Shown: positions 1 through 350 of the stretch, piece by piece | Layout of the letters: each line of letters starts with the position of its first letter | Numbering within the stretch: the first letter of the stretch is position 1 | From: Escherichia coli | Lineage (GTDB): Bacteria > Pseudomonadota > Gammaproteobacteria > Enterobacterales > Enterobacteriaceae | Assembly: GCF_003334765.1 (NCBI RefSeq) | Contig: NZ_QOWT01000132.1 | DNA length: 350 bases | Direction: 5' to 3' (one strand) | Notes under the pieces: model-generated | What the model saw: the letters and a program-made list of their open reading frames with translations, nothing else | Databases searched by the model: none | What the model was told of the DNA's origin: nothing | Translations under genes and position numbers: made by a program

Positions 1-350
1 TTTGCAGGTGTACGATAAGACCAGGCGGCTTCGTAAAGCAGACGTCTCAGTTCGCTGTTTCCAACTTTTGTTATTCCCCTGGGACGAATGCTGTTTCCAC
101 TGGAATATTCCCCTGGAACCAGTCCCAGAAAAGCCATGAGTTGTTTGGGACTGGAAAATCGTGAAAAATCACCCAGTTCAGCAACCAGGGTTATTGCGGT
201 TAGCTGACCAACACCTTTAAGGGCCTGTAACTGGCAGACCAGATTGCACAGAGACCACTCAGGTAACAGGCGGGATATTTCCTGGTCGAGTTGAAGTATG
301 CGATCTTCAATCTGCTCCAGACTCTGACAATAGTGTTGAAAAGCAATCTG
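1..350 (-). CDS. IS110-family transposase/recombinase, internal fragment covering the linker and C-terminal Transposase_20 (Tnp) domain; partial at both 5' and 3' ends
   Basis: Minus-strand frame with first codon base at window position 350 is open for all 116 codons. Translation contains LKGVGQLTAITLVAELGDFSRF, QLMAFLGLVPGEYSSG and ITKVGNSELRRLLYEAAW, which match the conserved pattern of the IS110-family Tnp domain (Pfam Transposase_20, PF02371) as I recall it. The other five frames are not comparably open or motif-bearing. No start or stop codon of this gene lies in the window. Confidence 0.88.
54..63. repeat. Exact 10-bp direct repeat gctgtttcca (second copy at 90-99)
   Basis: Identical 10-mers at 54-63 and 90-99. 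On the minus strand both encode Gly-Asn-Ser (ggaaacagc), giving the peptide pattern SGNS ... VGNS. Confidence 0.6.
72..82. repeat. Exact 11-bp direct repeat tattcccctgg (second copy at 106-116)
   Basis: Identical 11-mers at 72-82 and 106-116 on the plus strand, both inside the CDS (encoding PRGI and PGEY on the minus strand). Confidence 0.6.
264..323 (-). other. Predicted alpha-helical/coiled-coil linker segment between the N-terminal DEDD domain and the Tnp domain
   Basis: Peptide SLEQIEDRILQLDQEISRLL (codons 10-29) is rich in Leu/Ile/Glu/Gln with heptad-like spacing, and sits immediately upstream of the Tnp-domain motifs, where IS110-family proteins have a helical linker. Based on composition only. 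Confidence 0.45.

Follow-up and report, generated by a model that had tools for sequence, protein, structure and literature searches.

On its minus strand the window, by which we mean the whole 350-nucleotide stretch of DNA analysed here, reads as one uninterrupted frame of 116 codons: translation of all 350 bases in minus-strand frame 1 revealed neither a stop codon nor a frameshift, and no ORF in the remaining frames exceeds 48 aa. ISEc45 transposase genes annotated in Escherichia coli are 100% identical to it. In many complete genomes the matching annotation reads 'IS110-like element ISEc45 family transposase' (protein WP_000555380.1), and a copy of ISEc45 at 90% identity or more is present in 1255 of 5426 complete E. 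coli genomes, on chromosomes as well as plasmids. The full gene encodes 377 aa, and the window corresponds to residues 187-302. By its sequence, then, the window is an internal piece of the gene of ISEc45, an IS110-family RNA-guided transposase. Its features, in window coordinates, are the following:

1..350, minus strand: internal fragment of the ISEc45 IS110-family transposase (a bridge-type recombinase), residues 187-302 of 377 (translation; 100% identity to WP_000555380.1; NF033542)
258..350, minus strand: C-terminal stretch of the long helix ahead of the Tnp domain (helix 184-217 in the model), putatively, by position, the coiled-coil region of IS621 (AlphaFold2, Foldseek)
18..230, minus strand: core of the Tnp domain, protein residues 227-297 (fragment residues 41-111; PF02371, hmmscan)
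72..116, minus strand: predicted beta-hairpin spanning residues 265-279 and flanked by two helices of the Tnp domain; it corresponds to the 'S241 loop' of IS621 (DSSP on the model; PMC11208158)
96..113, minus strand: GEYSSG motif, residues 266-271 (reverse-complement translation)
111..113, minus strand: codon of G266 (translation)
108..110, minus strand: codon of E267 (translation)
105..107, minus strand: codon of Y268 (translation)
102..104, minus strand: codon TCC of S269, the first serine, aligned with IS621 E240 and not the predicted nucleophile (alignment; columns of relatives)
99..101, minus strand: codon AGT of S270, the predicted nucleophile and equivalent of IS621 S241 (ungapped alignments; column S/T)
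96..98, minus strand: codon GGA of G271, equivalent of IS621 G242 (alignment; G in at least 90% of relatives)

Domain searches agree with the annotation. The window fragment matches Pfam PF02371 (Transposase_20) at E 1.6e-24 over model positions 4-74 of 87 (hmmscan). The full ISEc45 protein matches both PF02371 (E 1.6e-23) and PF01548 (DEDD_Tnp_IS110; E 3.6e-15), and scores 279.9 bits over residues 9-364 against NCBIfam NF033542, 'IS110 family RNA-guided transposase' (cut-off 140 bits). An earlier note on this DNA placed GEYSSG on the minus strand at 96-113, right after LMAFLGLVP, and translation reproduces this: the six residues (266-271) follow directly upon KQLMAFLGLVP, in the minus-strand context ...KQLMAFLGLVPGEYSSGNSIRPRG... 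A motif this short could in principle be a chance string within a non-coding or misframed stretch. Nothing beyond its shortness favours that reading, which the identity to an annotated gene and the conservation of the same columns among relatives make virtually impossible; it was dropped on the strength of the 116-codon open frame and the domain and family matches (E 1e-24 to 1e-83).

The earlier note took GEYSSG to be the S-G catalytic-serine motif of the IS110-family Tnp domain, and left to inference which of the two serines is the nucleophile. The enzyme that defines this residue is IS621, in which S241, on the loop that links Tnp helices alpha3 and alpha4, is seen by cryo-EM in a covalent 5'-phosphoserine link to the cleaved DNA (Hiraizumi et al., PMC11208158); the S241A substitution abolishes recombination (PMC11208158). 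The 'conserved G242' of IS621 hydrogen-bonds to D102 in the RuvC domain of another protomer, which gives a composite active site (PMC11208158). A single highly conserved serine likewise stands out in the logo of 208,634 Tnp domains drawn by Durrant et al. (bioRxiv 10.1101/2024.01.24.577089).

When the window fragment was compared with all PDB chains (phmmer), IS621 (8wt6) and ISCro4 (9t56) were matched at E 2e-9 and E 1e-8 respectively, and neither alignment has a gap in or adjoining the motif. L-V-P-G-E-Y-S-S-G-N-S-I-R of ISEc45 is aligned to L-T-P-R-R-Y-E-S-G-S-S-V-R of IS621, so that the ungapped pairs, in native IS621 numbering, are Y268 with Y239, S269 with E240, S270 with S241 and G271 with G242. 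(The deposited IS621 chain has two extra N-terminal residues, native M1 being chain residue 3 and D11 chain residue 13; the motif thus pairs with chain residues 241-244, that is native 239-242.) A profile built from 96 sequences matched IS621 at E 3e-29 and ISCro4 at E 1e-30 with both domains covered and the register unchanged, and an independent MAFFT alignment again set S270 on S241. On either side of the serines the anchors P265, Y268, G271 and R275 are matched in IS621, and the same profile aligns the acidic residues D13, E64, D102 and D105 of ISEc45 with D11, E60, D102 and D105 of IS621.

The alignment to IS621 that the earlier note had proposed as a check thus singles out the second serine, S270, as the equivalent of the experimentally defined residue, the first being Glu in IS621; in none of the alignments did the conserved serine fall elsewhere or appear substituted. 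The assignment to the Tnp domain is borne out by the PF02371 match and by the ungapped alignment to S241-G242, and the further claim that this copy keeps its catalytic residue agrees with the presence of S270-G271 opposite S241-G242. Because sequence, profile and MAFFT comparisons all give the same ungapped register to S241, S270 is very probably the nucleophile equivalent of S241, and GEYSSG the catalytic loop of an IS110-family transposase; our confidence is held at this level mainly because IS1111-type and IS110-type mechanisms may differ (PMC11187229). We infer that ISEc45 would use S270 as IS621 uses S241, the covalent chemistry being known for IS621 only. A search of the literature on ISEc45 returned resistome and mobilome surveys only, and no mechanistic work was found.

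PDB 9mty was tried as a third reference for the register and rejected as a weak match that has no S-G at the aligned position. Chain A of this entry, a solved 'Transposase IS116/IS110/IS902 C-terminal domain-containing protein', is matched to the Tnp domain by the profile at E 3e-6. Since its catalytic-loop position has no Ser-Gly, the comparison suggests that 9mty is a non-catalytic or differently acting relative.

Variation among relatives bears on the two serines separately. A search of 1.84 billion cluster representatives gave 29,938 relatives (E up to 0.001), from which columns were counted in 114 rows with an intact region, taken from the best full-length relatives (35-55% identical to ISEc45). 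The counts at the two positions were as follows:

Position 270 (114 relatives): Ser 103, Thr 11, non-hydroxyl 0
Position 269 (114 relatives): Ser 104, Thr 1, non-hydroxyl 9 (A4, I, M, D, Q, V)

At G271 the column is Gly in 90% of relatives or more. Thr takes the place of Ser at the position aligned with S241 in about 10% of ISEc45-like recombinases (for example P0004, P0006, P0019 and P0055), and 10 of the 11 sequences with Thr retain Ser at 269, as S-T-G or S-T-A. Within E. coli, copies of ISEc45 at 93-96% identity vary only synonymously in the six motif codons (GGG to GGT, AGT to AGC).

These figures invite the question of whether S269 is the true, or a substitute, nucleophile in the ISEc45-like clade, the register to IS621 being functionally off by one. 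Ser occupies position 269 in approximately 91% of the clade, and the Thr-270 sequences that keep it belong to elements that proliferated: one S-T-G cluster (at 90%) has 789 members, and S-T-G is kept in all 15 of those read. Against this, every alignment is ungapped at the motif with its four anchors matching IS621; at residue 269 nine relatives have A, I, V, Q, D or M, and IS621 and ISCro4 both have E, whereas residue 270 bears a hydroxyl in 114 of 114. The M-T-G variant, seen once in the alignment, is kept in two distinct sequences, and in IS621 the Gly that contacts D102 comes directly after the nucleophile, as it does after S270. An off-by-one register is for these reasons very unlikely, and S270 stands as the predicted nucleophile. 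Cluster size, taken as a proxy for the activity of variant motifs, was informative for S-T-G (789 members) but not for M-T-G and A-S-G, which occur in clusters of one or two members only.

These counts are in keeping with a need for a hydroxyl at position 270 and with a supporting role of S269 that is specific to the clade. In the S-T-G proteins the nucleophile would be either Thr or the neighbouring Ser, and conservation alone does not prove the register. A Thr nucleophile, or a shift to the adjacent Ser, would be unusual for this class of enzyme. It is also conceivable, though very unlikely, that S269 is a second functional hydroxyl, either as a back-up or alternative nucleophile (for example in S-T-G elements) or as a player in one of the two strand-cleavage steps; if true, such a role would set IS1111-type recombinases mechanistically apart from IS110-type ones. 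Only two points in these alignments are mildly new: the S-[S/T]-G doublet that the clade conserves, where IS621 has a single serine, and the finding that Thr is apparently viable as the residue opposite S241.

An AlphaFold2 model of the ISEc45 transposase, built on the 96-sequence alignment, is of high confidence (mean pLDDT 96.2, pTM 0.91). DSSP assigns strands to residues 265-270 and 273-279 with a turn between them, flanked by helices 254-261 and 285-299; S270 is modelled at the end of the first hairpin strand, and G271-N272 form the turn. In a Foldseek search of the PDB the top matches were chains of IS621 and ISCro4 only (E approximately 1e-14; TM 0.78-0.80, target-normalised, a global comparison over the whole chain), followed by TasH (approximately 1e-4) and then by RuvC-like folds; no close solved structure of an IS1111-type enzyme was found in the copy of the PDB searched. 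The DEDD residues D13, E64, D102 and D105 lie outside the window and are intact in every window-identical genomic copy examined. Among relatives D13 and D105 are invariant, and at least 90% share E64 and D102.

From this we propose that GEYSSG would form the tip of the catalytic loop of the ISEc45 Tnp domain. The active site would be composite, with the DEDD residues (D13, E64, D102, D105) contributed in trans by another protomer's RuvC-like domain, within a tetramer assembled on a guide RNA. G271 would permit the turn of the loop and contact the third acidic residue. What the analysis shows for ISEc45 itself is which gene this is, in what register it aligns, how its residues are conserved, what fold it is modelled to have, and that genomic copies identical to the window keep the partner residues intact.

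Among characterised systems the closest in plan is IS621 (E. coli, IS110 group; PDB 8WT6-8WT9), which has in common with ISEc45 the two-domain arrangement of a DEDD RuvC-like domain and a Tnp domain, a fold like that of our model (TM approximately 0.8, target-normalised), aligned DEDD residues, and a catalytic loop P-x-x-Y-x-S-G-x-S-x-R that runs ungapped through both proteins with S270/G271 on S241/G242. The two are nevertheless distant (identity approximately 22%; 326 aa in IS621 vs 377 aa in ISEc45) and differ in the residue before the nucleophile, which is Ser in ISEc45 and Glu in IS621. Their targets differ too: ISEc45 lies in an IS66-family transposase gene, IS621 in a REP element. ISCro4 (PDB 9T56), an IS621-like IS110-group enzyme that is approximately 21% identical to ISEc45 and its top Foldseek match, has the loop YESG as in IS621, and the register with ISEc45 is unchanged. 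Serine recombinases (resolvases/invertases and large serine integrases) resemble IS110-family enzymes in having a serine nucleophile and a covalent 5'-phosphoserine-DNA intermediate (PMC11208158). Their fold is unrelated, however, and IS110-family enzymes differ from them in the composite Mg2+-dependent site to which a RuvC-like DEDD domain contributes in trans (PMC11208158), in RNA-guided recognition of DNA and in strand exchange via a Holliday junction (PMC11208158).

The ends of the element set ISEc45 further apart from IS621. A complete ISEc45 is 1447 bp long (copy on plasmid p15648-3, locus L002, 584-2030; compared with an uninterrupted IS682, locus L007). Its left end is short, with 59 bp ahead of the ATG, whereas the non-coding right end is long (approximately 250 bp after the stop codon). 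A perfect 10-bp sub-terminal inverted repeat, TATGACCTTT / AAAGGTCATA (L002 588-597 and 2017-2026), lies 4 bp inside each end as drawn. According to Siddiquee et al. (PMC11187229), IS1111-type elements are recognised by sub-terminal inverted repeats, usually of 11-13 bp, and a long non-coding region downstream of tnp, and it is downstream of tnp that their guide (seek/bridge) RNA is found (PMC11187229). By these criteria ISEc45 is of the IS1111-type layout, an assignment made by layout only; the same authors caution that IS1111 and IS110 mechanisms are not to be assumed identical (PMC11187229). Given this arrangement, any guide RNA of ISEc45 would be encoded downstream of the gene, rather than upstream as in IS621. 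IS1111-family elements with a seekRNA (such as ISEc11, 1443 bp; PMC11187229) are close to ISEc45 in size and like it in the sub-terminal repeat, the long downstream non-coding region and site-specific insertion without target duplication. ISEc45 departs from them in the length of its repeat (10 bp, where 11-13 is usual), in its terminal extensions (which sum to 8 bp, where 9-10 is usual) and in that its RNA is a candidate only.

In every copy with an intact context that was examined, ISEc45 interrupts an IS66-family (IS682/ISEc23/ISEc43) transposase gene at one and the same site, CATAAAG^TTTTTC. The dinucleotide AG is the only sequence common to both junctions, in the manner of a core dinucleotide, and there is no target-site duplication. 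Because these independent copies all sit at one point of IS66-family genes, ISEc45 appears to target another insertion sequence.

The right end (L002 1777-2030) is predicted to fold with a 16-bp long-range closing stem (1779-1794 with 1934-1949; MFE z = -2.6), and we consider it a candidate seekRNA or bridge RNA. A scan of the 6.3-kb genomic locus with Rfam at gathering thresholds gave no bridge RNA match, and comparison of the right non-coding end with the target site and the donor junction, for identity or complementarity, gave matches of 6-7 nt only, which is approximately the level of chance. The right end TGACAAAGGTCATAAGAG (L002 2013-2030) resembles the left flank of the target, TGCCAAAGAACATAAAG (L007 137-153); this likeness might reflect related donor and target guide segments.

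Copies of ISEc45 differ in how much of the element survives around the gene. Those of B19374 and NCTC86 are 100% identical to the window and are complete elements of 1446-1447 bp, with an intact 377-codon ORF and DEDD residues. In the equally window-identical copies of FORC_069 (L001 2384-3579) and O104:H4 (L010 884-2079) the match to the element ends 3 bp past the stop codon, and an IS3-family fragment replaces the right non-coding end together with the right inverted repeat. Such a truncated copy apparently encodes a competent enzyme, but self-mobility would be impossible. FORC_069 carries a second, complete copy of ISEc45 2117 bp downstream, with an identity of approximately 96% over the window region. 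There are also several pseudogene copies in E. coli: the one on plasmid p1 of strain E8 (L004, near 1435) has lost 4 bp directly 5' of the GEYSSG codons, and others (L005, L006) are frameshifted fragments that stop approximately 30 bp short of where the window region ends.

The copy represented by the window could itself be a non-working relic, in which the motif survives merely through the youth of the copy. The loss of the right end in FORC_069 and O104:H4 and the existence of frameshifted copies, one of them damaged directly 5' of the motif, lend this some weight. On the other hand, the window is free of stops and frameshifts, the B19374 and NCTC86 copies are complete, and even a truncated copy could still give recombinase in trans. 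That the window's own copy is a relic is thus possible, though we lean against it, and the matter bears on the copy and not on the meaning of the motif.

GEYSSG is a known feature, the catalytic serine loop of an insertion sequence already catalogued, and the finding is correct and ordinary. Its main value is one of correct annotation: a piece of ISEc45, an element common in E. coli, is confirmed to retain the codons of its catalytic loop, and S270 is identified as the one to replace where a catalytically dead control is wanted. Bridge recombinases are at present being engineered for genome editing, and ISEc45 is related to them as an IS1111-type element; the clade's S-[S/T]-G doublet and the regular choice of IS66-family transposase genes as insertion sites are therefore small but usable leads for the study of IS1111-type enzymes.

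A 10-bp perfect DNA palindrome, GGAATATTCC, lies at 102-111 of the window and overlaps the E-Y-S codons. The wider stretch 97-116 is self-complementary at 16 of 20 positions, and a repeat finder reported an imperfect palindrome of 21 nt. Approximately 0.3 such 10-bp palindromes are expected by chance per 350 bp, and in other intact copies of ISEc45 the outer pair is lost through the change of GGG to GGT; for these two reasons the palindrome at 102-111 is probably incidental, a by-product of the codons.
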